Origin: Gaiellaceae bacterium | GTDB taxonomy: Bacteria > Actinomycetota > Thermoleophilia > Gaiellales > Gaiellaceae | Direction of reading: 5' to 3' | Assembly (NCBI GenBank): GCA_036276675.1 | Contig: DASUOK010000096.1 | Location: forward strand, 1-39,891 | Length of the DNA: 39,891 nucleotides | In this document: piece after piece, positions 3,661-21,098 of the stretch | Position numbering within the stretch: position 1 is the stretch's first letter | Layout of the letters: each line of letters starts with the position of its first letter | Program-made: the position numbers and the translations under genes | Notes under the pieces: model-generated | Databases searched by the model: none | The model's input: only the letters and a program-made list of their open reading frames with translations | What the model was told of the DNA's origin: nothing

Positions 3661-4498
3661 CACCGGCGGCCAGGAGCAGCAGCCCGCACGCGGCGAGCAC
3701 GACGATGATCACGATCTCGGCGCCAGGCACCTCGGCGAGCTTCAGCCCGGCGAGCGTGAGCGTCAGCGCGAGGCCGAGCCGGAGCACGCGCTCGGGCAGC
3801 TTCACCGACACCTGACTCCCCAGCAGCACGCCCGGGATGGAGCCGACGAGCAGCGAGCCCATCGCCGCGATGTCGACGTTGCCCGCGGCCAGGTGGCCCG
3901 CGCCGGCGACCCAGAGCAGTGCGGCCGCGTGGAAGATGTCCGTTCCCACCACCTTCGAGGCGGTCAGCGGGAAGACGAGCAGCATCACCAGGCCGAAGAA
4001 CGTGCCGCTGCCGACGGAGGTGAGCCCCACGATGAAGCCGCCGATCGCCCCGGTGGCGAGCGCGATCTGCTTGTCGCGCCGCCGGAGCAGGAACGGTGCG
4101 TCGCTCTTCGCGCGACCGGCGATGAAGGTCTTGAGGCCGAACCCGACGCCGCCCAGGATCAGCGCGATCCCGAGGATGATCCCCGCCGCGTCCTCGAAGC
4201 CCTCGCCGTAGCGGTGCTTCAGCCAGGTGGAGAGGCCGACGCCGGCGAGCGAGAACGGCGCCGAGCCCGCGAGCATCCAGAGCGTCAGCCGGGCGTGCAC
4301 CGTGCCCAGCTGCCGGTGCCGGGCGGCGCCGAAGGTCTTGAACACCGCTCCGTGCAGGATGTCCGTGCCGATCGCGACGGTGGGCTTGAACCCGAAGAGG
4401 AAGACGAGCATCGGCGTCATCAGCGAGCCGCCCCCCATGCCGGTCATGCCGACGAGGATGCCGATGAACAGGCCCGCGATCGAGAGCTTCGGGTCCAC
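3605..4498 (-). CDS. TauE/SafE (DUF81) family sulfite/sulfonate anion exporter-type membrane protein
   Basis: Two-repeat polytopic membrane protein with GxxxGMTGMGGG-like and VGLTSVGSG motifs. GTG start at 4498. Divergent from cysH. Confidence 0.85.
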   Translation of the reverse strand: MDPKLSIAGLFIGILVGMTGMGGGSLMTPMLVFLFGFKPTVAIGTDILHGAVFKTFGAARHRQLGTVHARLTLWMLAGSAPFSLAGVGLSTWLKHRYGEGFEDAAGIILGIALILGGVGFGLKTFIAGRAKSDAPFLLRRRDKQIALATGAIGGFIVGLTSVGSGTFFGLVMLLVFPLTASKVVGTDIFHAAALLWVAGAGHLAAGNVDIAAMGSLLVGSIPGVLLGSQVSVKLPERVLRLGLALTLTLAGLKLAEVPGAEIVIIVVLAACGLLLLAAGVRAVRTAPARAGSGRGEG

Positions 4499-4504
4499 CG
4501 CGGC

Positions 4505-4574
4505 ACTCTACCCCGATTCGTCGAATAGGAGCGATTAGCTCTCCTTATCCGCTAGCCCGGGCCGATGGTAGGAT
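4505..4574. promoter_or_regulatory. Divergent tauE-like/cysH control region with two outward-facing -10 elements
   Basis: On the minus strand, TAGAGT (plus 4505-4510) lies 6 nt before GTG 4498. On the plus strand, TAGGAT (4569-4574) lies 7 nt before GTG 4582. The region between is the most AT-rich stretch nearby. Confidence 0.3.
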
Positions 4575-5277
4575 GCACCCCGTGTCGACGACCGCTCCCG
4601 CCGACGACGTCCAGCTGCTCGCGCAGCGCTCCGAGAGCCTGACGGCGGCGGACCTGGTCGCCGCGCTCGCCGAGCGCTTCGGGCCGCGGCTCGCGCTCGC
4701 CTGCTCCTTCCAGAAGGAGGAGTCGGTACTGCTCGACCTGCTGTTCGCCGTCCAGCCGAAGGCGCGCGTCTTCGCGATCGACACCCACTACCTCTTCCCG
4801 GAGACGTACGAGCTCTGGCGCGAGGTCGAGCGGCGGTACGACACGACGATCGAAGCGTTCGAAGGCCCGAGCGCCGACGAGCTCGCGACGACTCACGGCC
4901 AGGACCTCTGGGAGCGCAAGCCGGATCTCTACCTCGCGGTCGCCAAGGTCGAGCCGCTCGTCCGGGCGCTCGGCGACCTCGACTGCTGGATCACGGGCAT
5001 TCGCCGCGACCAGTCGCCGACGCGGGCGAGCGCCCCGAAGCTCGGCTGGGACGCCACGCACGAGCTGTGGAAGGCCAACCCGCTCGCCGACTGGAGCGAC
5101 GACGACTGCTGGGCGTACATCCGGGAGCGCGGGCTCCCCTACAACCCGCTGCACGACCGCGGCTACGCGTCCATCGGTGACACCCACTCGACGCTCCCCG
5201 GCGCCGGGCGCGATGGCCGCTGGGCGGGCAGCGACCGCACCGAGTGCGGGTTGCACGAGCCGACACCGCCGAGCTGA
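4573..5277 (+). CDS. cysH: Phosphoadenosine-phosphosulfate (PAPS)/APS reductase, thioredoxin-dependent type without Fe-S cysteines
   Basis: PAPS_reduct fold motifs are present (LACSFQKEESVLLDL, WITGIRRDQSPTRA) plus the C-terminal catalytic ECGLH. There are no CC...CxxC cluster ligands. An alternative in-frame GTG start lies at 4582. Confidence 0.85.
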   Translation: MHPVSTTAPADDVQLLAQRSESLTAADLVAALAERFGPRLALACSFQKEESVLLDLLFAVQPKARVFAIDTHYLFPETYELWREVERRYDTTIEAFEGPSADELATTHGQDLWERKPDLYLAVAKVEPLVRALGDLDCWITGIRRDQSPTRASAPKLGWDATHELWKANPLADWSDDDCWAYIRERGLPYNPLHDRGYASIGDTHSTLPGAGRDGRWAGSDRTECGLHEPTPPS

Positions 5278-6188
5278 TGCAGCACGCCCTCACGCTCACC
5301 CACCTCGACGAGCTCGAGGCCGAGGCGGTCCACATCATGCGGGAGGTCGCGGCCGAGCTCGAGCGGCCCGTGCTGCTCTTCTCCGGCGGCAAGGACTCGA
5401 TCGTGCTGCTGCGGCTCGCGGAGAAGGCTTTCCGGCCCGGCAAGTTCCCGTTCCCGGTGATGCACGTCGACACCGGCCACAACTTCCCCGAGGTGCTCGA
5501 GTTCCGCGACCGGCGCGTGGCCGAGCTGGGCGAGACACTCGTCGTCGCCTCGGTGCAGGAGTCGATCGACCGCGGCCGCGTGGTCGAGGAGACGGGACCG
5601 CGCGCCTCGCGCAACCAGCTGCAGACGACGACGCTGCTCGACGCGATCGAGGAGCACCGCTTCGACGCCGCCATCGGCGGCGCGCGCCGTGACGAGGAGC
5701 GGGCGCGCGCGAAGGAGCGGATCTTCAGCTTCCGCGACGACTTCGGCCAGTGGAACCCGCGCGCGCAGCGGCCCGAGCTCTGGAACCTCTACAACGCGCG
5801 CGTCCGCCGCGGCGAGCACGTGCGCGTCTTCCCGATCTCCAACTGGACGGAGCTCGACGTCTGGCAGTACATCGCCCGCGAGCAGCTCGAGCTGCCGCCG
5901 ATCTACTTCGCGCACGAGCGCGAGGTGTTCCGGCGCGACGGGATGCTCTACGCGGTGAGCGACTTCGTCGAGCGGATGGAGGGCGAGGACCCCTTCCGGG
6001 AGTCGGTGCGCTTCCGCACCGTCGGCGACATGTCTTGCACGGGCGCGGTGGCCTCGCGCGCGGCGACGCTGGAGGACGTGGTGGCGGAGATCGCGGCCAC
6101 CCGCGTGACCGAGCGCGGCGAGACGCGGGCGGACGATCGCATCTCCGAAGCGGCGATGGAGGATCGCAAGCGTGTCGGTTACTTCTAG
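5277..6188 (+). CDS. cysD: Sulfate adenylyltransferase subunit 2
   Basis: Motifs LTHLDELEAEAVHIMREVAAE, FSGGKDSIVLLRLA, HVDTGHNFPE and RVGYF at the C-terminus. ATG 5277 overlaps the cysH TGA by 1 nt (TGATG). Confidence 0.95.
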   Translation: MQHALTLTHLDELEAEAVHIMREVAAELERPVLLFSGGKDSIVLLRLAEKAFRPGKFPFPVMHVDTGHNFPEVLEFRDRRVAELGETLVVASVQESIDRGRVVEETGPRASRNQLQTTTLLDAIEEHRFDAAIGGARRDEERARAKERIFSFRDDFGQWNPRAQRPELWNLYNARVRRGEHVRVFPISNWTELDVWQYIAREQLELPPIYFAHEREVFRRDGMLYAVSDFVERMEGEDPFRESVRFRTVGDMSCTGAVASRAATLEDVVAEIAATRVTERGETRADDRISEAAMEDRKRVGYF

Positions 6189-7455
6189 CGAGCTGATGGA
6201 CGCCGGCCTGCTCCGGCTCGTCACCGCGGGCTCGGTGGACGACGGCAAGTCGACCCTGATCGGCCGCCTCCTCTTCGACTCGAAGCAGATCCTGGCCGAC
6301 CAGCTCGAGCACATCGAGGAGACCTCGCAGCGCCGCGGCGACGGCTACGTCAACCTCGCCCTGCTCACGGACGGCCTGCGCGCCGAGCGCGAGCAGGGGA
6401 TCACGATCGACGTCGCCTACCGCTCGTTCGTGACGCCTCGCCGCCGCTTCCAGCTCGCCGACGCGCCGGGGCACGTGCAGTACACGCGGAACATGGTCAC
6501 GGGCGCCTCGACCGCCGACCTCGCGATCATCCTCGTCGACGCGCGCAAGGGCGTGATCGAGCAGACGCGCCGCCACTCGTACATCGCCGCCATCCTCGGC
6601 ACGCCGCACGTCGTCGTCACCGTGAACAAGATGGACCTCGTCGAGTTCTCTGAGGAGCGCTTCCGCGAGATCGAGCAGGAGCTGCGCGAGACGAGCGAGC
6701 GGCTGGGCCTGCGCGACGTGCGCGTGATCCCGATCTCGGCCCTGCGCGGTGACAACGTCGTCGAGCGCGGCGAGGGGATGCCGTGGTACGACGGTCCGAC
6801 GCTGCTCGAGCACCTGGAGACGGTCGAGACGGCCGGCGATCGCGACCTCGACCACCGGCGCTTCCCCGTGCAGTGGGTGATCCGGCCGATCTCGGACGAG
6901 CACCACGACTACCGCGGCTACGCCGGCCAGGTGGCGGGCGGCCTCTGGCGCGCGGGCGACGACGTCGTCGTGCTGCCGTCCGGACGGCGCTCGAAGGTCG
7001 CCGCGGTGGAGACGTCCGACGGCCCGCTGGACGTCGCCGTGCCGGGCATGTCGGTGACGATCCGGCTCGAGGACGACCTCGACGTCTCCCGCGGCGACCT
7101 GCTCGCCGACCCGGACGCGGCCCCGGTCGTCGCCCGCGAGCTGGAGGCGACGGTCTGCTGGATGGCCGAGCGCCCGCTCGAGCCCCGCACGCGCCTCGTG
7201 GTCAAGCAGACGACCCGCTCCGTCCGTGCGATCGCCGACGAGCTCGTCTCGGTGATCGACATCCGCACGCTCGAGGACCGCCCCGCACCGGAGCGGCTCG
7301 AGCTGAACGACATCGCGCGCGTGCGACTGCGCCTGGCCGAGCCGCTGGCCGTCGACCCCTACGGCGAGAACCGCGCGACGGGCGCGTTCATCCTGATCGA
7401 CGAGGCGACGAACGACACCATCGGCGCCGGCATGATCCTCTCGGCGACGAGCTAG
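6172..7455 (+). CDS. cysN: Sulfate adenylyltransferase subunit 1 (GTPase), with no fused APS-kinase domain
   Basis: G1 motif GSVDDGKSTLIGRL, then DAPGH and NKMD. 427 aa, so there is no room for a CysC domain. GTG 6172 overlaps cysD; the alternative ATG 6196 is equally possible. Confidence 0.95.
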   Translation: MSVTSSELMDAGLLRLVTAGSVDDGKSTLIGRLLFDSKQILADQLEHIEETSQRRGDGYVNLALLTDGLRAEREQGITIDVAYRSFVTPRRRFQLADAPGHVQYTRNMVTGASTADLAIILVDARKGVIEQTRRHSYIAAILGTPHVVVTVNKMDLVEFSEERFREIEQELRETSERLGLRDVRVIPISALRGDNVVERGEGMPWYDGPTLLEHLETVETAGDRDLDHRRFPVQWVIRPISDEHHDYRGYAGQVAGGLWRAGDDVVVLPSGRRSKVAAVETSDGPLDVAVPGMSVTIRLEDDLDVSRGDLLADPDAAPVVARELEATVCWMAERPLEPRTRLVVKQTTRSVRAIADELVSVIDIRTLEDRPAPERLELNDIARVRLRLAEPLAVDPYGENRATGAFILIDEATNDTIGAGMILSATS

Positions 7456-7486: not shown

Positions 7487-7915
7487 ATGCCCGCCGAGCT
7501 CCAGCAGGTGCCGCTCTTCAGCAGCCTCTCGCAGCGACAGCTGAAGCGGCTGTCGCGCCTGTTCAAGGAGCACCGCGTCAAGGCCGGGCGCCCCGTCGTC
7601 AAGCAGGGGGAGATGAGCGGCATCCGCTTCTTCGTCATCTCGGAGGGCGAGGCGTCGATCAGCGTCGACGGGCGCGAGGTGAGGCGGCTCGGCCCCGGCG
7701 ACCACTTCGGCGAGTTCGCGCTGATCAGCCGGGAGGTCCGGGCGGCGACTGTCACGGCCGAGACCGACCTCACCTGTCAGGCGATCGCCTTCTATGACTT
7801 CCGGAGCTTCGCCAACGACAATCCCGAGATCCTCTGGAAGCTGCTCGAGCATGTCGTCGGCCTGCACACCGACGAGCGCGACCGCTCCGCGGCTTCGTCG
7901 CCTCAGACGAGCTGA
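7487..7915 (+). CDS. Stand-alone cyclic-nucleotide-binding (CAP-effector) domain protein
   Basis: Motifs VPLFSSLSQRQLKRL, GEMSGIRFFVISEG and the phosphate-binding cassette FGEFALISREVRAATVTA. 142 aa with no HTH or other output domain. Lies 31 bp downstream of cysN. Confidence 0.8.
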   Translation: MPAELQQVPLFSSLSQRQLKRLSRLFKEHRVKAGRPVVKQGEMSGIRFFVISEGEASISVDGREVRRLGPGDHFGEFALISREVRAATVTAETDLTCQAIAFYDFRSFANDNPEILWKLLEHVVGLHTDERDRSAASSPQTS

Positions 7916-9747: not shown

Positions 9748-9760
9748 CGGTTCGACCGTA

Positions 9761-10546
9761 CTACTGCGGGAGGAGGATCTCCTTGAGCGTGTCGCCGCGC
9801 AGGCCGAGGCGGAGGGTCTCCAGCGGGATCACTTCCTCGGGCGCGATGTTGCCGAGGTTGACCTCCGGCCCGAAATGCTTCACGAACCACGCCTGCGAGC
9901 TCTTCGAGGGCGCCTCCCAGATCAGGTCGTGGAAGTCGATCTCGTGCGCGATCTCGTCGATCAGGCCCGTGCGCATGTCGCCGTCCTTGCGGAAGATCCC
10001 GGCCGTGCCGCCCTCGCGCGCCTCCGTGATCACCTTCCAGGCTCCGGCCTGCTTCTCCTCCTTGATCCACTCGACCCACTGGTACGGGGCGAAGACGACC
10101 TCGGAGTCCTTCGAGCCGACCTCCGAGAGAACGGTGAAGTCGCGGGCGAAGTCGGCGATCAGCTCCAGCTTCCGCTCGCGCGGGATCTCGAGCGTCCCGT
10201 CCGAGATCTCGACGTGCGAGAAGCGGAAGTGCTCGAGCCAGCTCTTGAAGCCGTCCAGCTTGTTGCGCGCGAACACGGCCTCGAAGAGCGTGCCGCCGCA
10301 GACGATCGGCGTGCCGAACGAGCGGTAGAGCGCGATCTTCTTCTCCAGGTTGTTCGTGACGTAGCTCGTGCCCCAGCCGAGCTTGACGATGTCGACGTAC
10401 TCGCCGGCCGTGTCGAAGAGCCCCTCGATCTCGCGGATGCCCATACCCTTGTCCATCACGTGCGTGAGGCCGCTCTGCCGCGGCTTCGGGCTGCGCGCGG
10501 GGAGGTCGAGGAAGTTCGGGTGCGGATCGCCGTTAGAGGCGTGCAT
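9761..10546 (-). CDS. comA: (2R)-phospho-3-sulfolactate synthase
   Basis: Near full-length resemblance to the ComA family: GLTHVMDKG, VDIVKLGWGTS, GGTLFE, HVEISDG, LSEVGSK, IWEAPSKSSQAWF, NLGNIAPEEVIPLETLRLGLRGDT. The ATG overlaps the upstream gene by 14 nt. Confidence 0.9.
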   Translation of the reverse strand: MHASNGDPHPNFLDLPARSPKPRQSGLTHVMDKGMGIREIEGLFDTAGEYVDIVKLGWGTSYVTNNLEKKIALYRSFGTPIVCGGTLFEAVFARNKLDGFKSWLEHFRFSHVEISDGTLEIPRERKLELIADFARDFTVLSEVGSKDSEVVFAPYQWVEWIKEEKQAGAWKVITEAREGGTAGIFRKDGDMRTGLIDEIAHEIDFHDLIWEAPSKSSQAWFVKHFGPEVNLGNIAPEEVIPLETLRLGLRGDTLKEILLPQ

Positions 10547-11135
10547 AGAGCTCCTTCAGCTTCTCCTGCGCCTGGGCCTGGACGTCGTGGTAGAGCGAGT
10601 TGCCGTGCGCGTCGATGCCGACGGTGAGCGGGCCGAAGTCCTTCACGCGGAACTTCCAGAGGCACTCGGGCATCAGCTCCTCCCAGGCCACCTCCTCGAT
10701 CTCCTCGATCTGCGTCGTCTCGAGTGCGGCGGCGCCGCCGACGATCGCGAAGTAGACCATCCCGAGCTCGCGCATCGGCTCGATCGCCTCGTCGGGGAAG
10801 CCGCCCTTGCCGCAGATCGCGCGGACGCCGAACTGACGGCCGAGCGGCTCGGTGAAGCGCACCATACGGGCGCTCGTCGTCGTGCCGATGCAGATCTTCT
10901 CGTAGGTGCCCCTGCCCTCGGCATCGGTGGCGACCTTGCGCACGTTCGGCGCCGTGTGCAGGAGGAACGCGCCCGTGAGATCCATCGGCGGCTCGACGCC
11001 CTGGTCGAAGATGCGGATCTGCGTGCGGTCGCGGATGCCGATGATGTGGCCCTGCACGGTGACCTCGTCGCCCGCCCGGAGCTTCAGGATCTCCTGCGGG
11101 TCGGTGACCGGGAAGGTGACGGTGTGCTCGGCCAT
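10533..11135 (-). CDS. Class-I Fe-S hydro-lyase beta subunit (fumarate hydratase/tartrate dehydratase C-terminal-domain type)
   Basis: This is the C-terminal 200 aa of track ORF 10533..11594. Motifs LRAGDEVTVQGHIIGIRD, ICGKGG and FAIVGGAAAL. ATG 11135 lies 2 nt after the alpha-subunit stop. Confidence 0.85.
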   Translation of the reverse strand: MAEHTVTFPVTDPQEILKLRAGDEVTVQGHIIGIRDRTQIRIFDQGVEPPMDLTGAFLLHTAPNVRKVATDAEGRGTYEKICIGTTTSARMVRFTEPLGRQFGVRAICGKGGFPDEAIEPMRELGMVYFAIVGGAAALETTQIEEIEEVAWEELMPECLWKFRVKDFGPLTVGIDAHGNSLYHDVQAQAQEKLKELYARL

Positions 11136-11137
11136 CG

Positions 11138-12037
11138 CTAGAACTCCCGGTCGTAGTCGAGGTTGCCCTGGGCGTCGACGTGCACGGAGGCGCGCCGCGC
11201 CGCCCAGCACTGGTAGTTCACGGCGACCGGGTTCAGCGTCATGTGCGTGTCGGCGTGCTCGATGTGGCACTGGAGCACGGTCACGTCGCCCCCGAGCCCC
11301 ATCGGGCCGATGCCGGTCTCGTTGAGGAGCCCGTAGAGCTCGTCCTCGAGCTGCGCCACGAGCGGGTCGGCGTTGCGCGTGCCGACCGGGCGCGTGATCG
11401 CCTCCTTGGCGAGGTACATCGCGTAGTCGGCGGTGCCGCCGATGCCGACGCCGACGATCCCGGGCGGGCAGGGCTTGCCGCCCGCGCCGACGATCGACTC
11501 GAGCACGAACTGCTTGATCCCCTTCACGCCGTCGGCGGGGACGCACATCTTCAGGAAGCTCATGTTCTCGGAGCCCGAGCCCTTCGGCACGCACTTGACG
11601 TCGAGGCCGTCCCAGTCCGGGATGAACTCCCAGTGCACGATCGGCAGCCGGTGGCCGATGTTCGGCCCGGTGTTCTCGCGCGTGATCGTGTGCACCGCGT
11701 TCGAGCGCAGCGGGTGCTCGACCGTCGCGCGGGCGGTGCCGTCGCGCAGCGCCTCGTAGATCCGCGTCGGATGGAGCGGGAAGTGCTCGCCGACGCGGCA
11801 GGTGTAGACGGCAATGCCGGTGTCCTGGCAGACGAGGTTCTTCTCCTCGTCGGCGATGTTCACGTTGCGGTGGATCGTGTTGAGGACGCGCTGGCCGGTG
11901 ACGGAGGTCTCGCGGTCGCGCGCCGCGGCGAGGGCGTCGCGCAGGTCCTGCGGGATGTCCTTCAGCGCCCAGACGTAGAGGTGCGCCGCGGCGTCCTCGA
12001 CGGCGTGCTGGAGATCGGTCGTGGTGACTGTGCTCAT
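11138..12037 (-). CDS. Class-I Fe-S hydro-lyase alpha subunit (fumarate hydratase/tartrate dehydratase N-terminal-domain type)
   Basis: Motifs CQDTGIAV, VPKGSGSENMS, GKPCPPGIVGVGIGGTAD. ATG 12037 is preferred, with GAAGG 7 nt upstream. The track uses TTG 12043. Confidence 0.85.
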   Translation of the reverse strand: MSTVTTTDLQHAVEDAAAHLYVWALKDIPQDLRDALAAARDRETSVTGQRVLNTIHRNVNIADEEKNLVCQDTGIAVYTCRVGEHFPLHPTRIYEALRDGTARATVEHPLRSNAVHTITRENTGPNIGHRLPIVHWEFIPDWDGLDVKCVPKGSGSENMSFLKMCVPADGVKGIKQFVLESIVGAGGKPCPPGIVGVGIGGTADYAMYLAKEAITRPVGTRNADPLVAQLEDELYGLLNETGIGPMGLGGDVTVLQCHIEHADTHMTLNPVAVNYQCWAARRASVHVDAQGNLDYDREF

Positions 12038-12092
12038 TGGCAAACCTTCGGCTCGACGCTCACTGTGCTCGCTTTCTCCAAGTAACAGACTG

Positions 12093-13283
12093 TCACTTGG
12101 CGTTCTCCGCGGCTGCCCGGCCGGCGCGGCGCCCGAAGACGACGCACTCGAGCAGCGAGTTTCCCATCATCCGGTTCTCGCCGTGCGTGCCCCCTGCGAT
12201 CTCGCCGCACGCGTAGACGCCCTCGAGCGTCGTCTGCGCATCGGTGTCGATCACGAGGCCGCCGTTCTGGTAGTGCAGCACGGGGTAGGTGAGGATCTTC
12301 TCCGTGAGCGGGTCGATGCCGCCACCGCGGTAGCGGCGCAGCATGTACGGGAGCGAGACCTCCGCGTCGGCCGGCGCGATGCGGGTGGTGTCGAGGTAGA
12401 CGGCGGGGCGGCCGTCGGGCGTCTCCACGCCCCGGCCTCCTTCGACCTCGTCGAAGATCGCCTGGCTGACGACGTCGCGGGGGCCGAGGGAGTCGGTGAA
12501 CTCCTCGCCGTCGGCGTTCAGCAGCACGGCGCCGTACGCACGGGTCGTCTCGGGGATCGAGTAGCCCTGCATCGTCTCGGGCCAGGCGCCGCCGTTCGGG
12601 TGGTACTGGAGGTGGTCGAGGTCGCGCGCCTCCGCGCCGAGGTCGAGCGCGAGCTGCAGCACCTCGCCCGTCGCGTTCGGGTGATTCGTCGAGAGCTCGC
12701 CGCGCTCCTGCGCGACGCGGTAGCAGCGCCCGCCGGCGGCGAGGACGACGGTGGCGGCGTCGAGCTCGTGCTCGCCGCAGGTGGCGCGCCACCCGTGCTC
12801 CGTCCGCTCGAGGGCGGCGAGCGGGCTGTTCGCGAAGAGCGTGCCAGCGCCCGACTCGAACGCGTCGCGGAGCGCCTTCGTGATCGCGTGGCCGGTCCGG
12901 TCGCCGACCTGGAGCAGGCGCTTGCGGCTCGCACCCCCGCAGCGGGCCAGGCGATAGCCGCCGTTCTCCCTCGTGAACTCGACGCCGAGCTCCTCGAGCC
13001 AGTGGATCGCGCCCTGCGCGTCGCCGGTCAGGATCTCGACGAGGCCCAGGTCGGCGCTCTCGTGCGAGCTCGTGAAGATGTCGGCAGCGTGCTGCTCGGG
13101 TGAGTCGTCGGCACCGAACGCTGCCTGGATGCCGCCCTGCGCCTTGGCCGAGTTGCACGCCTGGATCGAGCCCTTCGTCGCGAGCGCGACGCTCGCGCCG
13201 GCGCGGTCGGCCGACACGGCGGCGGCGAGCCCGGAGGCGCCGCTGCCGATCACGAGCACGTCGAATGCGCGGCTCTCGGTCAC
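12093..13283 (-). CDS. FAD-dependent oxidoreductase of the succinate dehydrogenase/fumarate reductase flavoprotein family (short, soluble type)
   Basis: Dinucleotide fold DVLVIGSGASGLAAA, YHPNG (HPT-like motif), TRAYGAVLLN (RGEG-like proton-shuttle region), and C-terminal GVYACGEIAGGTHGENRMMGNSLLECVVFGRRAG. 396 aa, so it lacks the usual C-terminal helical domain. GTG start. Confidence 0.8.
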   Translation of the reverse strand: MTESRAFDVLVIGSGASGLAAAVSADRAGASVALATKGSIQACNSAKAQGGIQAAFGADDSPEQHAADIFTSSHESADLGLVEILTGDAQGAIHWLEELGVEFTRENGGYRLARCGGASRKRLLQVGDRTGHAITKALRDAFESGAGTLFANSPLAALERTEHGWRATCGEHELDAATVVLAAGGRCYRVAQERGELSTNHPNATGEVLQLALDLGAEARDLDHLQYHPNGGAWPETMQGYSIPETTRAYGAVLLNADGEEFTDSLGPRDVVSQAIFDEVEGGRGVETPDGRPAVYLDTTRIAPADAEVSLPYMLRRYRGGGIDPLTEKILTYPVLHYQNGGLVIDTDAQTTLEGVYACGEIAGGTHGENRMMGNSLLECVVFGRRAGRAAAENAK

Positions 13284-13289
13284 CGGGGC

Positions 13290-13320
13290 AGGATACCAGC
13301 ATCGATAATGCTGCGCATTA
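13290..13320 (-). promoter_or_regulatory. Internal promoter and operator ahead of the flavoprotein/hydro-lyase/comA genes
   Basis: On the minus strand, TATCCT (plus 13290-13295) lies 6 nt before GTG 13283. A perfect dyad TAATGC-N3-GCATTA at 13306-13320 is centred about 30 nt upstream of that start. Confidence 0.35.
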
Positions 13321-13355
13321 GCCTTCGTTATTCAGAGTGGCTCGCCGGATGGGAG

Positions 13356-14315
13356 TCACCAGATCGAGCGCAGGAGCTCCTCGACCTGCGCCGGCGTCGC
13401 GGTGCGCGGGTTCGCCTTCGCCCCGGCCCGCTGCACGACGGCCGCGGCGACGCCGGCCAGCTCGCCCTCTGGCACGCCGTGGTCGCGCAGCCGCTCGAAG
13501 CCGCCCAGGCGGGCGAGCTCCTCCACCCGCGCCGCTGGATCCTCGGTGCCGAGTGCCTCGCCCAAGCGGGCGATCGCGTCGGCGGCAACACCGCGGTTGA
13601 AGCGGAGTGCCGGCGGCAGGCAGAGCGCGTTCATCGCGCCGTGCGGCAGGCCGTACCGGCCGCCGAGCGCCTGCGCCATCGCGTGGCCGAGGGCGAGCAT
13701 GGAGCCGGCCAGGGCCGCACCCGCGTGACACGCGCCCTGCAGCAGCTCCGTGCGGGCGGCGAGATCGCGCGGCGTCTCGACGACCCGGGGCAGCGCCGAC
13801 CCGATCAGCCGCGCCCCCTCGAGCGCATGCGCGTCGGCGGCCGCGTTCCGTCCCCGGACGTACAGCGCCTCGGCGCAGTGCGCGAGCGCGTTCAGCGCCG
13901 TGCCCACGGTCTGGTCGCGGGGGAGCTCGAGGGTCAGCTGCGGCTCGTAGACGATGCCCGCGACGCGCGCGCCGGCGCCGCCGCCGCGCTGGCGCCGCCC
14001 GGGGTCGCGCACGCCGAAGAAGTCCGTCCACTCCGCGCCGGAGTACGTCGTCGGGATCGAGACGACCGGGAGCGAGGCCTCCGCGGAGACCGCCTTCGCC
14101 GTGTCGATCGTGCTGCCGCCGCCGAGCGGCACCAGGCAGTCGGCAGCTCCCAGGGCCGCGGCAACCGCCGCGATGTCGTCCGTCGGCAGCTCGCTCCAGC
14201 GGCCGACGTGCGCCGGCACGTCCTCGTGCCTGGAGGTCGCGAGCAGGTACGGCGCCGAGCAGCCGAGCTCCCCCAGGACGTCGTCGAGAGCCTCGACACC
14301 CCAGCGAACGATCAT
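13356..14315 (-). CDS. Iron-containing (group III) alcohol dehydrogenase family protein, maleylacetate-reductase-like
   Basis: Motifs GGGSTIDTAK, TALNALAHCAEALY and LGHAMAQALGGRYGLPHGAMNA (metal His ligands). ATGA overlap with the lysR-type gene stop. Confidence 0.75.
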   Translation of the reverse strand: MIVRWGVEALDDVLGELGCSAPYLLATSRHEDVPAHVGRWSELPTDDIAAVAAALGAADCLVPLGGGSTIDTAKAVSAEASLPVVSIPTTYSGAEWTDFFGVRDPGRRQRGGGAGARVAGIVYEPQLTLELPRDQTVGTALNALAHCAEALYVRGRNAAADAHALEGARLIGSALPRVVETPRDLAARTELLQGACHAGAALAGSMLALGHAMAQALGGRYGLPHGAMNALCLPPALRFNRGVAADAIARLGEALGTEDPAARVEELARLGGFERLRDHGVPEGELAGVAAAVVQRAGAKANPRTATPAQVEELLRSIW

Positions 14316-15205
14316 CCGACGCGTTCCCGCGCGAAGGCGACGAAGGCGTCGGCGACCCGCGTCGGCGTCCGTCCCGCCGCGCGCGCGAGCGAGATCTCGC
14401 GCGTCGCCTCGAGCCCCTCGACCCGCGCCGCCGCCAGCGTGCCGGCGGCCAGCTCCGACTCGACGGCGGTGCGCGAGATGAAGGCGACGCCGTAGCCGGC
14501 CTGTACGGCGCTCCGCACCGACTCCTGCAGCCCGAGCTCGAGCCGCACGTCGAGGTCGCGCAGGCGCAGCCCGAGCTCGCGCAACTCGTCGTCGACGATC
14601 TGGCGGACGCCGGCGCCCTCCTGCATCAGGATCAGCTTGTCCGCCCGCAGCTCGTCGAGGCCGACGCTGCGGCCGGCAAAGGCGTGACCGGGCGGACAGG
14701 CGAGGATCACCTCGTCCTCGAAGAACGGCTCGAACCGCACGGAGCGATGACGGCGCGCCGCGCCGACGATGCCGAGCTCGAGCTCACGCGAGGCGACGAG
14801 CTCGACCACCGAGTGCGTGTCGTGCACCGACAGGGCGACCTTGACGCCGGGGTTCTCGAGCTGGAACTCGCAGAGCAGGAGCGGGACGACGACCGCGGCG
14901 GGGCCTGTCGAGGCGCCGAGCCGGAGCTCCCCGGTGAGCTCGCCGTCGCCGTCTCCGGTGACCTCCTCGAGGAGCTGCTCCTCGAGCGCGAGCAGCCGCT
15001 GCGCACCGCGATAGAGGCGCGCGCCGGCCTCAGTCGGCTCGACGCGGCGACCCGAGCGGTCGAGCAGCTGCGCGCCCAGCCGCTTCTCGAGCGCGCGCAC
15101 CTGCAGCGAGACGGCCGGCTGGGTGACACCGAGCCGCTCTGCGGCCTGCGAGAAGCTCTTGCGCTCGACGACGGCGCAGAAGGCGGCCAGCTGGCGCGTG
15201 TCCAT
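14312..15205 (-). CDS. LysR-family transcriptional regulator
   Basis: N-terminal HTH (LAAFCAVVERKSFSQAAERLGVTQPAVSLQVRALEKRLG) followed by a LysR substrate-binding domain of typical length. Confidence 0.9.
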   Translation of the reverse strand: MDTRQLAAFCAVVERKSFSQAAERLGVTQPAVSLQVRALEKRLGAQLLDRSGRRVEPTEAGARLYRGAQRLLALEEQLLEEVTGDGDGELTGELRLGASTGPAAVVVPLLLCEFQLENPGVKVALSVHDTHSVVELVASRELELGIVGAARRHRSVRFEPFFEDEVILACPPGHAFAGRSVGLDELRADKLILMQEGAGVRQIVDDELRELGLRLRDLDVRLELGLQESVRSAVQAGYGVAFISRTAVESELAAGTLAAARVEGLEATREISLARAAGRTPTRVADAFVAFARERVG

Positions 15206-15223
15206 AAGCTCATCTTATAAGGT
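15204..15223. promoter_or_regulatory. Back-to-back -10 elements plus a LysR-type dyad in the 20-bp lysR/DUF354 intergenic region
   Basis: The dyad ATAAG-N5-CTTAT (15204-15218) contains T-N11-A. Minus-strand TAAGAT (plus 15212-15217) lies 6 nt before ATG 15205. Plus-strand TAAGGT (15218-15223) lies 8 nt before ATG 15232. Confidence 0.35.
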
Positions 15224-15225
15224 CG

Positions 15226-16239
15226 ATGCGGATGCGGGTCTGGATCGACATCACGAACTCGCCGCACGTGCCCTTCTTCCGGCCGCTGCTCGGGCTGCTC
15301 GAGTCGCGGAGGCATGAAGTGACCGTGACCACGCGCGACTACGCGCAGACCCTGCAGCTGCTCGGGCTGCACGGCATCCCCCATGAGGTCGTCGGCCCGG
15401 GGCACGGCGGGGCGGGCCGGCTCGGGAAGGCCCGTGCGCTCGCCGGCCGTCTCGTCGCGCTGCGCCGCTTCGCGCGCGGCCGCGGCTTCGACGTCGCGCT
15501 CGCCCACGGCTCGCACGAGCTCGCATTGACGGCGCGCAGCCTCGGCGTCCCGAGCACGACCGCGTTCGACTACGAGTACGCCTGGCTCCAGCACCAGCTC
15601 GGCTGCCGGGCGGCGACGAAGGTCGTGGTGCCGGAGGCGATCCCGCCGGAGCGCCTCGCCCGCCTCGGCGCGAGACCGCCGAAGCTGCTCCGCTATCCGG
15701 GCCTGAAGGAGGAGTACTACCTGTCCGACTTCGTGCCGGGCCCGGAGCCGCTCCCCGGGCTCGACCCCGAGCGGGTGCTCGCCGTCGTGCGCACGCCGCC
15801 CGAGGTCTCGCTCTACCACCGCCACGGCAACCCGCTCTTCACCCGCGTGCTCGAGCGGCTCGGGCGAGACGAGGCCGTGCAGGCGGTCGTGCTCACACGG
15901 ACGCAGGAGCAGCGGGCGGCGCTCGCCGCGCTCGCGCTGCCGTCACTCGTCCTGCCGGAGCGTGCGATCGACGCGCAGAGCCTGATTGCGCGCGCCGACC
16001 TCGTCATCTCGGCCGGCGGCACGATGAACCGCGAGGCGGTGGCGCTCGGCGTGCCCGTCTACACGACCTTCGGCGGCCGCCTCGGCGGCGTCGACGAGTG
16101 GCTGATCCGCGAGGGCCGCCTGCTGCCGCTCGCCGATCCCGCCGAGCTCGAGCTGCGCAAGCGCGAGCGGGGCCCCGGCGAGCGCACCCGCCGGGACCCC
16201 GAGGTCCTGCTCGAGCTGCTGCTCTCAGCCGCCGACTAG
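15226..16239 (+). CDS. DUF354 family protein (glycosyltransferase/epimerase-like fold)
   Basis: The N-terminus (M)RVWIDITNSPHVPFFRPLL...HEVTVTTRDYAQTLQLL matches the characteristic DUF354 opening, and the C-terminal part contains ISAGGTMNREAVALGVP. ATG 15232 may be the true start. Confidence 0.7.
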   Translation: MRMRVWIDITNSPHVPFFRPLLGLLESRRHEVTVTTRDYAQTLQLLGLHGIPHEVVGPGHGGAGRLGKARALAGRLVALRRFARGRGFDVALAHGSHELALTARSLGVPSTTAFDYEYAWLQHQLGCRAATKVVVPEAIPPERLARLGARPPKLLRYPGLKEEYYLSDFVPGPEPLPGLDPERVLAVVRTPPEVSLYHRHGNPLFTRVLERLGRDEAVQAVVLTRTQEQRAALAALALPSLVLPERAIDAQSLIARADLVISAGGTMNREAVALGVPVYTTFGGRLGGVDEWLIREGRLLPLADPAELELRKRERGPGERTRRDPEVLLELLLSAAD

Positions 16240-17685: not shown

Positions 17686-18123
17686 ATGGGTTCAGAGGCG
17701 GTGCCTCTCGAGGTTCCTATACTGACGGGTATCGCCGAAACGGGTCAACAGAACGGTCTGCACGCCGCCGTCGAGTCCTTCGTGCAGCGCGTCCGGGGAC
17801 TGACCGACGAGGAGCGGCGCACGGTGGCCGAACGCCGCAGCGGGATCGACGAGGCCCTGCGCGAGAAGGCGCTGCGTGCCGGCGCGGAGGCGATCGCGCG
17901 CCATCCTGACCTCTATGCGCACGCTCGTGCGCGGGTCGCCGGGGCGCATCTCCCGGCGGCGCTCGAGGACGGCAGCACGGACGCCGAGTGGGTGCGGGTC
18001 TCGCGGCTCGTGCAGCTCGCGATCGACGAGGGGCTCGTCGCGGTCGTCGGCAGCGGCACTCTGCACCCGAACCACCTGCGCGAGCTGATCGCGCCCTGGC
18101 CCGCCGAGCTAGCGCGGCGGTAG
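17686..18123 (+). CDS. Hypothetical protein (start uncertain)
   Basis: High GC3 from about 17760 to the stop, with lower GC3 and no SD near ATG 17686. Alternative in-frame starts are GTG 17701 or GTG 17782. No recognisable motif. Confidence 0.4.
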   Translation: MGSEAVPLEVPILTGIAETGQQNGLHAAVESFVQRVRGLTDEERRTVAERRSGIDEALREKALRAGAEAIARHPDLYAHARARVAGAHLPAALEDGSTDAEWVRVSRLVQLAIDEGLVAVVGSGTLHPNHLRELIAPWPAELARR

Positions 18124-20007
18124 CCGCGTGTGCGTCGACTCGGCAGGCTCGTCGACGAGCAGCCGCTTCGGCTCGCGCGTGATCTCGGCCAGGCGGCCGA
18201 CGAGCTCGAGCGTGTCGCCCTCCTCCACGAGCACCTCCAGCTCGTCGAGCTTCGCGTCGAGCCAGGCGCGATCGACCGGCGAGACGTCGAGCGCCACGAT
18301 CGAGGGATGCGTCGTCGGCTCCCACCGCTCACCGGCGGCGAAGAGCTCCTCGTGCGTCTTCTCGCCGGGGCGCGCGCCGATGAACGTGATCGCGACGTCG
18401 ACCTCCGGCTCCTTCCCGGAGAGCCGGATCATGTTCCGCGCGAGATCGAGGATGCGGATCGGCTCGCCCATCTCGAGCACGTAGATTTGCCCCCGGCCGC
18501 CGATCGCCCCGGCCTGCACCACGAGGGCGACCGCCTCCGGGATGGTCATGAAGAAACGGGTCATCTCCGGATCGGTCACGGTGACGGGGCCGCCGCGCTC
18601 GATCTGGCGGCGGAACAGCGGGATCACGCTGCCCGCCGAGTTGAGGACGTTGCCGAAGCGGACGGCGACGAACTTCGTGGCCACTTCGTCGCGCTCCCCG
18701 TGCGAGCCGACGATCCACTCGCAGAGCGTCTTCGTCTGTCCGTAGACGCTGTACGGGTTCAGCGCCTTGTCGGTGGAGATGAGGACGAAGCGCTCGACGC
18801 CGTGGGCGATCGCGGCGTCGGCGACGTTCCTCGTCCCGAGGACGTTGTTCGCCACCGACACGAGCGGATTCGCCTCCATCAGCGGCACGTGCTTGTACGC
18901 GGCCGCGTGGAAGACGACGTCGGGGCGGTAGCGGTCGAAGACGTCGTGCAGACGCCTGCGGTTGCGGACGTCGGCCAGCACCGGCACGCCCGCCACGAAG
19001 TCCCGCTCGTCGACGAGCTCGCGCTCGATGTCGAAGAGAGCGCTCTCGCCCTGCTCGACCATCACGATGCGCGCAGGCTCGGCTCGCGCGATCTGGCGGC
19101 ACAGCTCCGAGCCGATCGAGCCGCCGGCGCCGGTGACGAGCACGGTCTTGCCCTCGAGATACGACGAGATCGCGGCGACGTCCGTCTCCACGGGCTCGCG
19201 CCCGAGCAGGTCCTCGACCTGGACGGGCCGGATCTGCCGCGTGAGCGCCTCGTCGCCGGCGATCAGCTCGTGGAGGCCCGGGAGCGTCTTCACCGGCACG
19301 CCCGCGTCGCTCGCGACCTCGACGATCCGCCGCCGCAGCTCGCCCGAGGCGGACGGGATCGCGATCAGCAGCTCGTCGGGCCGGCGGTCGTGCAGGATCC
19401 GCTGCAGCTCATCGCTCGTGCCGAGCACGCGGATCCCGTGCAGGCGCATGTTCTTCTTGCGCGGGTCGTCGTCGACCAGCCCGATGGGCGTGTAGCCGAT
19501 CGCCGGGCTGCGCAGCATCTCCTTGACCATCAGCTGCGCGGCGTCGCCGGCGCCGACGACGATCACCTCCTTGCCCCGCGCGACGAGCGACGAGGTCTGG
19601 GGGCGCTCGATGATCGTGCGCGCCAGCATCCGCGAGGCGGCGACGAACGCGAGGCAGAGCAGCCAGTCGAGGACCCAGACCGTCCGCGGCACGGACGCGA
19701 CGTGCACGTCGAAGAAGGCGAACACGAGGAAGGCGACGAGCGACGCGGCCGTCACGCCGCGGGCGGCACCCCACATGTCGCGGGTCGAGACGTACCTCCA
19801 CCAGCGGTTGTAGAAGCCGAAGAGCGCGAACACGGACAGCTTGATCGCGATCAGCAGCCCGACGATCTCGGCGTCCAGGTAGCGGTCGTAGTAGACCGGG
19901 ATCGAGGGGTCGAAGCGCAGCTGGAAGGCGAGGAACCACGCGGCCGCGACGATCGCCGCGTCGGCCACCAGCTGCGGCAGCCGGTGTCGGTTGATCGGGA
20001 ACCTCAC
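18109..20007 (-). CDS. Membrane-bound UDP-sugar 4,6-dehydratase (CapD/PglF/WbpM family)
   Basis: This is the C-terminal 632 aa of track ORF 18109..21513. It has four N-terminal TM helices, two Rossmann motifs (VIVVGAGDAA, VLVTGAGGSIGSEL) and the catalytic YGQTKTLCE. GTG 20007 lies 5 nt after the upstream stop. Confidence 0.9.
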   Translation of the reverse strand: MRFPINRHRLPQLVADAAIVAAAWFLAFQLRFDPSIPVYYDRYLDAEIVGLLIAIKLSVFALFGFYNRWWRYVSTRDMWGAARGVTAASLVAFLVFAFFDVHVASVPRTVWVLDWLLCLAFVAASRMLARTIIERPQTSSLVARGKEVIVVGAGDAAQLMVKEMLRSPAIGYTPIGLVDDDPRKKNMRLHGIRVLGTSDELQRILHDRRPDELLIAIPSASGELRRRIVEVASDAGVPVKTLPGLHELIAGDEALTRQIRPVQVEDLLGREPVETDVAAISSYLEGKTVLVTGAGGSIGSELCRQIARAEPARIVMVEQGESALFDIERELVDERDFVAGVPVLADVRNRRRLHDVFDRYRPDVVFHAAAYKHVPLMEANPLVSVANNVLGTRNVADAAIAHGVERFVLISTDKALNPYSVYGQTKTLCEWIVGSHGERDEVATKFVAVRFGNVLNSAGSVIPLFRRQIERGGPVTVTDPEMTRFFMTIPEAVALVVQAGAIGGRGQIYVLEMGEPIRILDLARNMIRLSGKEPEVDVAITFIGARPGEKTHEELFAAGERWEPTTHPSIVALDVSPVDRAWLDAKLDELEVLVEEGDTLELVGRLAEITREPKRLLVDEPAESTHTRLPPR

Positions 20008-20012
20008 GTGGC

Positions 20013-21098
20013 CTACCGAGCCGAGGCGACGCCGACGGCGTCGAGCACCGTCTCGACGACCTGTTCCTGCTGCTCCGGCGCGATCCCCGCCCACAGCGGC
20101 AGCGCGAGGTTCTCGGCGGCCGCGCGCTCCGTCTCGGGCAGCGAGCCCGGCTCGTAGCCGAGGTAGCGGAGCGCGGGCTGGAGGTGGAGCGGGGTCACGT
20201 AGTACGAGGCGGAGGCGATCTCGCGCTCCCTCAGCGCGGCGGCGATGCGCTCCCGCCCGGCGGTACGCACGACGTAGAGGTGGTAGACGTGGCCGGGCTC
20301 GTCCGGCGGCAGCTCCACCGCGTCGCCGAGGCCGAGCTCCCCGTACTGCGCCGCCGCCGCCCGCCGGGCGGCGTTCCAGCCGGCGAGGTGCGGCAGCGAG
20401 ACGCGCAGGAACGCGGCCTGCAGGGCATCCAGCCGCGAGTTCGTCCCCACGAGCTCGAAGGTCGTCTTCTCGCGCGAGCCGTGGAAGCGCAGCATGCGCA
20501 GCCGGTCGGCGACCGCGTCGTCGAGACAGCTGACGAGCCCGCCGTCGCCGAGCGCGAACAGGTTCTTGGTGGGGAAGAAGCTGTACGTGGAGCAGCTGCC
20601 GGTCGTGCCGGTGCCGGGCGCGCCGAACGCCTGGGCCGCGTCCTCGATCAGCGGCAGCCCGAAGGCGGCGAGCTCGGCGAGGGGTGCCGGGCGCCCGAAC
20701 AGGTGCACCGGCACCATCGCCTTCGTCCTCGCCGTCAACCGCCGCTCGACGTCGTCGGGGTCGAGGTTGAGGGACACGGGATCGATGTCGGCGAAGACGG
20801 GGGTCGCGCCGGCGCGGGCGATCGCCTCTGCCGTCGCGTAGAACGTGAACGCCGGGCAGACGACCTCGTCGCCGCGGCCGATGCCCATCGCCTCGAGCGC
20901 GAGCACGAGCGCGTCGGTGCCGTTCGCGACGCCGATCGCGTGCGGGACGCCGAGGTACTCGGCCGCCTCGGCCTCGAAGCCGGACACCTCCGGCCCGAAG
21001 ATGAAGCGGCCCGAGGCCAGGACGCGCTCGAACGCCTCGCGGTACTCGGGCACGAGCGGCGCGTACTGCGCCTTCACGTCGACGAGATCGATTCGCAC
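20013..21098 (-). CDS. DegT/DnrJ/EryC1/StrS family PLP-dependent sugar aminotransferase
   Basis: Motifs GPEVSGFEAEAAEYLG, VANGTDAL and FFPTKNL (PLP lysine). GTG start. Confidence 0.9.
   Translation of the reverse strand: MRIDLVDVKAQYAPLVPEYREAFERVLASGRFIFGPEVSGFEAEAAEYLGVPHAIGVANGTDALVLALEAMGIGRGDEVVCPAFTFYATAEAIARAGATPVFADIDPVSLNLDPDDVERRLTARTKAMVPVHLFGRPAPLAELAAFGLPLIEDAAQAFGAPGTGTTGSCSTYSFFPTKNLFALGDGGLVSCLDDAVADRLRMLRFHGSREKTTFELVGTNSRLDALQAAFLRVSLPHLAGWNAARRAAAAQYGELGLGDAVELPPDEPGHVYHLYVVRTAGRERIAAALREREIASASYYVTPLHLQPALRYLGYEPGSLPETERAAAENLALPLWAGIAPEQQEQVVETVLDAVGVASAR

Follow-up and report, generated by a model that had tools for sequence, protein, structure and literature searches.

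An operon of a Gaiellaceae bacterium predicted to convert phosphoenolpyruvate and sulfite to 3-sulfopropanoate, and its recurrence beside glycan genes in distant lineages

To our knowledge, few routes that form carbon-bound sulfonates are known, namely those leading to coenzyme M (CoM), sulfolactate, cysteate or capnine, and sulfoquinovose. The systems closest to the one described here begin with the synthesis of phosphosulfolactate from phosphoenolpyruvate (PEP) and sulfite. In the CoM pathway of Xanthobacter autotrophicus (XcbB-E and XcbA; PMC9457059), this step is performed by the ComA homologue XcbB, and the lyase XcbC1 was demonstrated experimentally to eliminate phosphate from phosphosulfolactate, resulting in sulfoacrylic acid. 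Bacillus subtilis possesses the sulfolactate operons yitCD and yitBA-yisZ, which encode, besides ComA, a dedicated sulfate adenylyltransferase, adenosine 5ʼ-phosphosulfate (APS) kinase and 3ʼ-phosphoadenosine 5ʼ-phosphosulfate (PAPS) reductase. Here, we analyzed a comA operon on a stretch of 39,891 nucleotides (contig DASUOK010000096.1 of assembly GCA_036276675.1, from here on called the window; G+C content ~72%) of a Gaiellaceae bacterium belonging to the Thermoleophilia, in which comA is joined to the genes of a class I Fe-S hydro-lyase and of a short flavoprotein. We predict with moderate confidence that the operon makes 3-sulfopropanoate from PEP and sulfite via phosphosulfolactate, sulfolactate and sulfoacrylate. 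Sulfonate biosynthesis from PEP and sulfite by ComA, and the XcbC step in sister clusters, are the known part of this route.

The six genes of the module all lie on the minus strand, and every family was confirmed by both Pfam and NCBIfam. A LysR-type regulator (15205..14312; 297 amino acids; HTH_1 and LysR_substrate) is followed by an Fe-ADH family protein of the maleylacetate-reductase-like group (14315..13356; 319 amino acids; ADH_Fe_C and Fe-ADH), whose start overlaps the LysR stop as ATGA. After a gap of 72 bp, a FAD_binding_2 flavoprotein similar to fumarate reductase and NadB begins with a GTG start (13283..12093; 396 amino acids; PF00890, 211 bits). The alpha subunit of the hydro-lyase, starting at TTG 12043 or ATG 12037 and ending at 11138 (Fumerase, 306 bits), lies 49 bp or 55 bp behind it, respectively; the beta subunit (11135..10533; Fumerase_C) follows after 2 nt and overlaps by 14 nt with comA (10546..9761; PF02679, 294.5 bits). 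The order, overlaps and gaps of these co-directional genes, as given in a preliminary description of this DNA, were all verified by the coordinates.

The conservation of this arrangement was assessed by scanning a genome collection, in which the best 80 loci all belonged to the Gaiellales; the comparison set comprised 82 Gaiellales loci (L001-L082), and distant lineages were reached via the flavoprotein. The presence of genes was determined by targeted tblastn, as clustering of open reading frames (ORFs) was too noisy due to the antisense ORFs common in DNA of high G+C content. In all 65 informative Gaiellales loci, defined by at least 3.7 kb upstream of comA, the genes of the flavoprotein, alpha and beta are co-directional with and adjacent to comA in the same order, a linkage far beyond chance that upholds the assumption of a conserved neighborhood in relatives. 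For each of three metagenome-assembled genomes (MAGs) from the long-read Microflora Danica set (L003, L006 and L070), one module gene had no match covering at least half of the query; the shorter matches found instead are likely due to frameshifts or assembly errors.

In the usual Gaiellales order, the genes downstream of comA encode PAPS reductase, APS kinase, ATP sulfurylase, TauE, a protein of ~310 amino acids, Wzy_C and a PIG-L deacetylase, the three sulfate reduction genes being located directly after comA in the same operon in most loci. This run is broken in the window, where an AlkZ-like DNA glycosylase gene (8626-9747, minus strand), beginning 14 nt past the comA stop and found in only 6 of the 82 related loci, and an inverted cysH-cysD-cysN cluster (4573..7455, plus strand; PAPS_reduct for cysH and cysD, GTP_EFTU for cysN) are placed between ComA and TauE. 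Together with a small gene for a cyclic nucleotide (cNMP)-binding protein directly after cysN (7487-7915, plus strand), this points to a local rearrangement of the usual operon of ComA, cysH, cysC, sat and TauE. The cysHDN genes probably supply sulfite from sulfate and belong to the regulon of the module. Both cysHDN and TauE had initially been placed within about 2 kb of the operon; this fits the end of cysHDN at a distance of 2.3 kb from comA, but not the TauE/SafE-family permease for sulfite or organosulfonates (4507..3605, minus strand; PF01925, 131 bits), which is encoded ~5 kb away.

Since synteny within a single order may be mere inheritance, more distant lineages were compared. An exhaustive search with the flavoprotein revealed that the family of its homologues of ~400 amino acids reaches well beyond the Thermoleophilia. 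In the Miltoncostaeaceae (L083-L085), including the cultured Miltoncostaea marina (L083, CP064655), LysR, the flavoprotein (53-54% identity), ComA and ATP sulfurylase are found together. In 7 of 8 distant loci, whose G+C content is 44-54% as compared to 72-76% in the Thermoleophilia, the short flavoprotein (~400 amino acids, 32-38% identity) adjoins ComA. Locus L086 (47% G+C) carries Wzy_C, the flavoprotein, FumA, FumB, ComA, His_Phos_1, PIG-L and ATP-grasp genes, and in L094 the flavoprotein, FumA, FumB and ComA are followed by ComB (PF04029), Epimerase_2 and NeuB. In an Omnitrophota MAG (L093), NeuB, a CMP-sugar synthetase, the flavoprotein, FumA and FumB are encoded close to the contig end, and its ComA may lie past this end or be replaced.

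In four distant loci, the Fe-S alpha/beta pair is replaced by an XcbC-like protein of the Lyase_1 family. L087 and L088, the latter from Nitrospirota, share the layout Lyase_1, ATP-grasp, flavoprotein, ComA, glycosyltransferase and DegT; L089 (flavoprotein, Lyase_1 and ComA, with the ATP-grasp gene adjoining ComA on the opposite strand) and L091 (ATP-grasp, flavoprotein, Lyase_1 and ComA) are both situated inside a polysaccharide cluster. The Lyase_1 proteins share 36-40% identity with Xaut_4873, which is XcbC1 and is encoded beside the phosphosulfolactate synthase XcbB on the Xanthobacter plasmid, and reach 474 bits on the NCBIfam model of XcbC (NF052535) versus 282 bits on that of argH. The precedent of XcbC, invoked in the preliminary description for a fumarase-like step on this scaffold, is backed by true XcbC-like lyases in sister modules. 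As the Fe-S pair and the XcbC-like lyase alternate, two unrelated lyase types fill one slot between ComA and the flavoprotein. Moreover, both complete Fe-S modules outside the Thermoleophilia (L086 and L094) carry a phosphatase gene beside ComA, His_Phos_1 and ComB, respectively, whereas no phosphatase gene is present in the XcbC-type modules; this is the distribution predicted by the proposed chemistry, given that an XcbC-type enzyme eliminates the phosphate itself. As a side observation, the ATP-grasp protein and the XcbC-like lyase of L087 (5737-6996) and L089 (9291-10787) match the two halves of the 890-position NCBIfam model PRK02186 ("argininosuccinate lyase"), so that fused ATP-grasp-lyase proteins exist elsewhere and may be misannotated.

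According to the proposed route, sulfate would be reduced to sulfite by CysDN and CysH (Sat, CysC and CysH in sister genomes), and ComA would join sulfite to PEP, resulting in (2R)-phosphosulfolactate. A phosphatase not encoded in the window would then release (R)-sulfolactate, which has the spatial arrangement of L-malate; outside the Thermoleophilia, this step would be performed by ComB or by the His_Phos_1 enzyme. The [4Fe-4S] alpha/beta enzyme would dehydrate sulfolactate to sulfoacrylate as a fumarase does with malate, and the short flavoprotein with its non-covalent flavin adenine dinucleotide (FAD) would reduce sulfoacrylate to 3-sulfopropanoate. In other lineages, dephosphorylation and dehydration would be merged in the XcbC-type lyase that eliminates phosphate directly. 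The resulting acid could be joined by an ATP-grasp ligase to an amino sugar, the amine of which would stem from DegT and Polysacc_synt_2 enzymes or be exposed by PIG-L; alternatively, it could be exported by TauE. The chemistry up to 3-sulfopropanoate had been predicted in the preliminary description, and gains support from the recurrence of flavoprotein and ComA, the interchange of the lyases, the co-occurrence of a phosphatase with the Fe-S type and the fit of the active sites.

The entry enzyme of this route is supported as a predicted phosphosulfolactate synthase using PEP and sulfite. The ComA domain of the window is full-length (PF02679 profile positions 2-243 of 243), and full-length alignments were obtained with the solved relatives YitD of B. 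subtilis (1u83, E 2e-62) and ComA of Methanocaldococcus jannaschii (1qwg, E 6e-47), in comparison to which the motif blocks VEISDG, EVGSK, EAREGG and EAP.K..Q are kept. Its score of 246 bits on TIGR03849 is just under the archaeal equivalog cut-off of 280, similar to that of the ComA from Miltoncostaea (251 bits). The identity of ComA to proteins from Gaiellaceae, Gaiellales and Thermoleophilia MAGs amounts to 77-93%.

Glycan genes flank the module in every lineage sampled, a context that had been overlooked in the preliminary description together with the wide spread of the module. In the window, these are the GT-B-like DUF354 gene divergent from lysR (15226..16239, plus strand; PF04007), a DegT aminotransferase gene (21098..20013, minus strand), a Polysacc_synt_2 gene of the 4,6-dehydratase type (about 20010..18109, minus strand), NAGPA, and a Wzy_C-type glycan polymerase or ligase gene (1466..24, minus strand; 62% identity to the L001 gene by tblastn), the last preceded by the gene of the conserved protein of ~310 amino acids (2398..1475, minus strand; 58% identity to the L001 gene by tblastn). 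Among the Gaiellales loci, Wzy_C occurs in 44 and the ~310-residue protein in 51, followed by the PIG-L deacetylase in 42, and DUF354 in about 40; in the Miltoncostaeaceae, DUF354 is located between DegT and Polysacc_synt_2. Elsewhere, the glycan genes comprise PIG-L, NeuB, CMP-sugar synthetase, glycosyltransferases, Bac_transf, Wzc and Poly_export. DegT, Polysacc_synt_2 or both, predicted to make an amino sugar, are encoded beside the module in L083, L084, L086, L087, L088, L089 and L091, and the PIG-L deacetylases of L086 and the Gaiellales are 55% identical. ATP-grasp ligases are found inside or beside the module in 5 of 8 distant loci. Therefore, ligation to an amino sugar of a surface glycan is the most likely fate of the acid, and also the least secure part of our model. 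We tentatively propose a widespread pathway in the Thermoleophilia, Nitrospirota and other phyla, probably including Omnitrophota, in which 3-sulfopropanoate, formed by two new enzyme activities, would be attached by ATP-grasp ligases to surface glycans, whose amino sugars or nonulosonic acids would carry it as an N-acyl group with a permanently anionic sulfonate.

Alternatively, 3-sulfopropanoate, sulfolactate or sulfoacrylate might be a free end product that serves as an osmolyte or is secreted via TauE. A gene for TauE indeed follows comA or sat in 56 of the 82 Gaiellales loci, and a TauE homologue has been proposed as 3-sulfopropionate exporter in Enterococcus gilvus (PMC11489063). Furthermore, spores of B. 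subtilis accumulate free sulfolactate, the product of a ComA/ComB operon with its own paralogues of sat, cysC and cysH (PMC517825). Given the polymerase, deacetylase, aminotransferase, dehydratase, NeuB and glycosyltransferase genes (Wzy_C, PIG-L, DegT, Polysacc_synt_2) around the module in all lineages sampled, the ligases in the distant loci, and distant modules that lack TauE, we nevertheless consider a free product unlikely, even though the Gaiellales loci yielded no ligase.

The flavoprotein consists of the FAD and capping domains only, without a C-terminal helical domain of the complex II or TfrAB type, and covers positions 2-388 of the 489-position NadB profile. Its AlphaFold model (pLDDT 95.6) can be superposed on SdhA/FrdA in these two domains, and the TM-score, normalised to the query, is 0.90. 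A His/Arg/His/Arg set equivalent to H244, R290, H351 and R386 of NadB is kept, the equivalents of R290, H351 and R386 being invariant and that of H244 nearly so among 18 homologues. Of the two motifs noticed initially, the catalytic Arg (LGPRD) is present, but the HPT-like motif reads H-P-N rather than H-P-T. The His for covalent binding of FAD is absent (NSAKAQGG), as in NadB and the soluble fumarate reductases. Glu121 of NadB is a Cys here (RCGG), other members of the family having Gly, Ala, Ser or Pro at this position, and the score on the NadB model TIGR00551 amounts to 254 bits versus a cut-off of 453. In the fumarate reductase family, non-covalent FAD favours the reduction of enoates over oxidation of the succinate type. 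The four retained substrate residues, the missing covalent-FAD His and the missing NadB Glu thus fit the site of an enoate reductase with reduction favoured, which supports the prediction of a sulfoacrylate reductase. A housekeeping role of the flavoprotein as NadB, and of alpha/beta as fumarase, was rejected due to the cross-phylum context, the lack of Glu121 and the score under the NadB cut-off.

Another role of the flavoprotein, i.e. a NadB-like oxidation of sulfolactate or cysteate, an action after ligation, or an APS-reductase-like handover of sulfite to ComA, would be in line with L-aspartate oxidase being among its best sequence matches, with a weak local match to the AprA-like PAPS reductase alpha subunit 8a8o (E 2e-5), and with the Miltoncostaeaceae cluster of flavoprotein, ComA and ATP sulfurylase, in which neither CysH nor a lyase is encoded nearby. 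In addition, no partner that supplies reductant is encoded. We regard such a role as improbable, given the absent Glu121 and the four dicarboxylate-binding residues kept, the lack of an AprB-like Fe-S subunit, and the CysH that the Gaiellales operon already encodes. The distant modules, moreover, contain no sulfate-activation genes but always a lyase of the predicted sulfoacrylate-forming type. An assignment as APS reductase, prompted by the Miltoncostaea layout and the 8a8o match, was set aside because of these distant modules without sulfate activation and because of the intact dicarboxylate site.

The predicted source of sulfoacrylate in the window is the alpha/beta enzyme. Alpha matches the fumarate hydratase of M. 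jannaschii (7xky_A, E 3e-72); its sequence contains the three cluster cysteines as well as the motifs CQDTG, R112, KGSGSEN and TH. Its C71-Q72-D73, CPP and QCW..RR segments align with C133, C252 and C346 of the Leishmania major fumarate hydratase, from the reported structure of which the residue roles are taken, and with 7xky_A. Beta retains RD, TTSARM and GKGG, the residues that bind the C4-carboxylate. The preliminary description had asked whether the distal carboxylate ligands are replaced; all known ligands of malate and fumarate are conserved in alpha/beta, and it is the flanking positions that differ. The retained carboxylate ligands are compatible with the binding of a sulfonate, but no proof of it.

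Several features set the lyases of the module apart. Beta scores 148.7 bits on the NCBIfam fumarase model NF004708, whose cut-off is 269, and passes only the generic TIGR00723. The identity to the module-linked homologues in L086, L093 and L094 is 46-49% for alpha, compared to 38% with the canonical enzyme of L090, and for beta 54-58% compared to 32%; judged by these sequences, the module-linked Fe-S lyases are a subgroup of their own, nearer to each other than to the canonical L090. Beside the active-site motifs, module-linked and canonical sequences differ in IIG[IC]RD versus I[YF]TARD, GTTTS versus GPTTS, HTAP versus H[AC]GP and TH versus CH, and KGSGSENMSF is also among the module-specific differences; since only three canonical sequences were compared, these changes are a lead and no firm result. 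We predict alpha/beta to be an (R)-sulfolactate dehydratase, and the genomic context argues against fumarate or malate as its physiological substrate.

It is very improbable that the linkage is fortuitous, with an ordinary fumarase next to a fumarate reductase or NadB, or that the genes serve the catabolism of 3-sulfopropanoate via sulfoacrylate and sulfolactate. Such readings would account for the fumarase score of alpha, for the conserved malate ligands and for the existence of a canonical cluster of FumA, FumB, Fer4 and flavoprotein without ComA in a WOR-3 MAG (L090; JBDRVO010000028, 5907-9641), and a proposal for Roseovarius, cited in PMC11489063, has 3-sulfopropanoate converted to sulfolactate via sulfoacrylate. 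They conflict with the adjacency of flavoprotein and ComA in unrelated lineages inside glycan clusters, the fusion of the operon to sulfate-reduction genes, the low score of beta and the non-covalent FAD, which disfavours succinate-type oxidation. They also conflict with the replacement of the Fe-S lyase by an XcbC-like lyase that eliminates phosphate, which can be understood only if phosphosulfolactate is the intermediate. The L090 cluster, which was used as outgroup and encodes a Fer4 ferredoxin-like protein and a flavoprotein of 546 amino acids with an N-terminal extension of ~90 residues, probably represents a soluble unit of fumarase and fumarate reductase, from which the module is likely to have evolved. 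CoM synthesis was rejected because XcbD, XcbE, ComC and ComDE are all absent: by tblastn, neither the window nor the 82 Gaiellales loci contain a homologue of XcbC, XcbD or XcbE, and L087-L091 have XcbC-like proteins without XcbD and XcbE. The reported absence of ComB, ComC and ComDE was confirmed, as tblastn detected no ComB and Pfam scans of the window ORFs no ComC or ComDE family.

Some results weigh against the synthesis of a glycan-bound 3-sulfopropanoate. Alpha, with 306.9 bits, passes the NCBIfam fumarase equivalog NF004885 (cut-off 276 bits), and because all malate and fumarate ligands are conserved, the alpha/beta sequence also fits a plain fumarase. A phosphatase for the proposed route was found neither in the window nor within 10 kb in the 82 Gaiellales loci: tblastn of the window revealed no homologue of ComB, His_Phos_1 or PAP2, and also none of four ATP-grasp queries; ComB (PF04029) is missing from all 82 loci in the same kind of search, and PAP2 is present in only 4. 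The window does contain a gene for a PhoX alkaline phosphatase adjoining DUF354 (16236-17687, minus strand), but a single one of the 82 related loci shares it, so that it probably has nothing to do with the phosphosulfolactate phosphatase that is missing. ATP-grasp ligases were likewise not detected by tblastn in the Gaiellales loci. No electron-donor gene for the flavoprotein is encoded, and a Fer4 gene such as that of L090 is missing from the window operon. In L083-L085, no lyase is present beside the flavoprotein and ComA, and neither CysH nor APS kinase is encoded nearby. The cut gene of 287 amino acids that follows FumB in L093 (6330-7191) matches no Pfam family and does not resemble ComA. 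Only eight distant contexts were sampled. Finally, no glycan with a sulfonated acyl group of this kind is known to us or was found in the literature searched.

The LysR protein, whose best NCBIfam match NF040786 reaches 247 bits versus a cut-off of 250, is encoded upstream of the module in 55 of the 82 Gaiellales and in 3 of 3 Miltoncostaeaceae loci and is the probable regulator of the module. A motif of the form ATAA[GC]-N5-[GC]T[TA]AT has 89 matches in 1.34 Mb of Gaiellales loci, 88 of which are located at starts of LysR or flavoprotein genes; 46 matches precede the LysR start by 13 nt, and 41 precede the flavoprotein start by ~49 nt. In the window, the dyad ATAAG-N5-CTTAT is found as an exact match (15204..15218; 0.02 expected by chance) at the lysR start, within the 20 bp that separate lysR from the divergently oriented DUF354 gene. 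The promoter and operator region of the flavoprotein-lyase-comA operon is the 72-bp gap (13284..13355, minus strand), where ATAAC-N5-CTAAT overlaps a perfect dyad TAATGC-GCA-GCATTA (TAATGCGCAGCATTA; 13306-13320) and a -10-like TATCCT is located 6 nt before the GTG start of the flavoprotein gene, in agreement with the dyad and promoter noted initially for this gap. At the same promoter place, M. marina has ATAAGAATGTCTTAT. A third, operator-like site lies in the divergent intergenic region of tauE and cysH (4523..4548), where GAATAGGAGCGATTA overlaps ATTAGCTCTCCTTAT; each half is one mismatch away from one of the two motifs (chance expectations 0.05 and 0.02), and further on, a TAGGAT box precedes an in-frame GTG by 7 nt. 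The short distance of only ~6-8 nt between the -10 box and the start codon at both promoters suggests leaderless transcripts or transcripts with a very short leader.

LysR is thus predicted to bind operators of the ATAAG-N5-CTTAT type at its own promoter and at that of the operon, and probably at the tauE/cysH promoter, so that, by the three sites of the window, a glycan gene and the genes of sulfite supply, although displaced, would share this regulator. An Rfam scan of positions 9000-16000 at a permissive threshold yielded only a chance miRNA-like match and no riboswitch or leader RNA for the 72-bp gap, the dyad of which is a predicted protein operator. The Fe-ADH protein is most similar to 3jzd (E 2e-45) and the maleylacetate reductase 3hl0 among solved structures. 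Maleylacetate reductases reduce a C=C bond; the protein of the window is ~30 N-terminal residues shorter than these enzymes, and a more upstream start is impossible, the ATGA overlap with lysR being the point at which its ORF begins. It is found in 43 of the 82 Gaiellales loci (48-68% identity) and in none of the modules outside this order. By this distribution, the Fe-ADH gene is an accessory gene; neither it nor lysR belongs to the core that is shared across phyla.

Apart from the genes discussed so far, the window contains housekeeping cofactor genes at 26094-29892 and 36254-38454 (minus strand), for menaquinone synthesis of the futalosine type (VitK2_biosynth), a polyprenyl synthase, a UbiX-like flavoprotein, a cytochrome b/c fusion, glutamate-1-semialdehyde aminotransferase and ALAD, and a gene for an adenylate cyclase-TPR protein at 33193-35634.

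In the literature, we found no description of a class I Fe-S lyase on this scaffold or of a minimal fumarate-reductase-like partner of ComA, in agreement with the notion that this combination had not been described, and also none of the either/or of two lyase types or of the embedding of the module in glycan clusters. The sole ComA match in an actinomycete natural-product cluster belongs to a different cassette that supplies a 2-sulfoacetyl group. If true, the pathway would be a new branch off the ComA/sulfoacrylate node, with new substrate specificities for the class I fumarases and the fumarate reductases, two classic families of central metabolism. It would also be a clear case of non-homologous slot filling, with an Fe-S lyase plus a phosphatase in one version and an XcbC-type lyase in the other. 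A new, strongly acidic decoration of surface glycans could affect surface charge, recognition by phages or antibodies, and organosulfur cycling in soil; the carriers include the abundant but poorly known Gaiellales among the soil Actinomycetota and several candidate phyla.

The comparison with known systems delimits what is particular to this operon. In mycothiol and bacillithiol synthesis, deacetylation by the PIG-L enzymes MshB or BshB is followed by a ligase. The likeness to this scheme is one of logic only: L086 encodes a PIG-L protein, with BshB1 as weak best NCBIfam match, and an ATP-dependent ligase beside acid-forming genes, but the scores are far under the family cut-offs, a cysteine ligase is missing, and the neighbors are polysaccharide-assembly genes (Wzy_C, glycosyltransferases, NeuB). 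The archaeal and B. subtilis systems share the ComA-ComB steps with sister module L094, in which ComB adjoins ComA, and the B. subtilis operons, like those of most Gaiellales, join ComA to sulfate activation and PAPS reduction; the window differs by the lack of ComB, ComC and ComDE and by an Fe-S lyase and a flavoprotein that would extend the route past sulfolactate. With the CoM pathway of Xanthobacter, the module shares sulfoacrylate as the predicted branch point, an adjacent LysR gene and, in the sister modules L087, L088, L089 and L091, the XcbC-like lyase. The window has a class I Fe-S alpha/beta enzyme instead of the class II XcbC, which makes a separate phosphatase necessary; sulfoacrylate would be reduced by the flavoprotein to 3-sulfopropanoate here, while it receives cysteine on the way to CoM there, and the context is glycan synthesis rather than alkene metabolism. 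Fumarases and soluble fumarate reductases (class I FumAB, the M. jannaschii fumarate hydratase, the Fcc3, Osm1 and TfrA types, and L090) correspond in folds and catalytic residues, i.e. the cluster cysteines, the Asp/Thr acid-base pair, the Arg/Lys carboxylate clamps and the His/Arg/His/Arg set, as well as in non-covalent FAD and, in L090, in a lyase gene next to a reductase gene. In contrast to these units, the flavoprotein of the window has only 396 amino acids, with neither an Fe-S or haem partner nor an N-terminal extension, beta scores under the fumarase cut-off, the module-linked proteins are a subgroup by themselves, and the genes are joined with comA and with the supply of sulfite.

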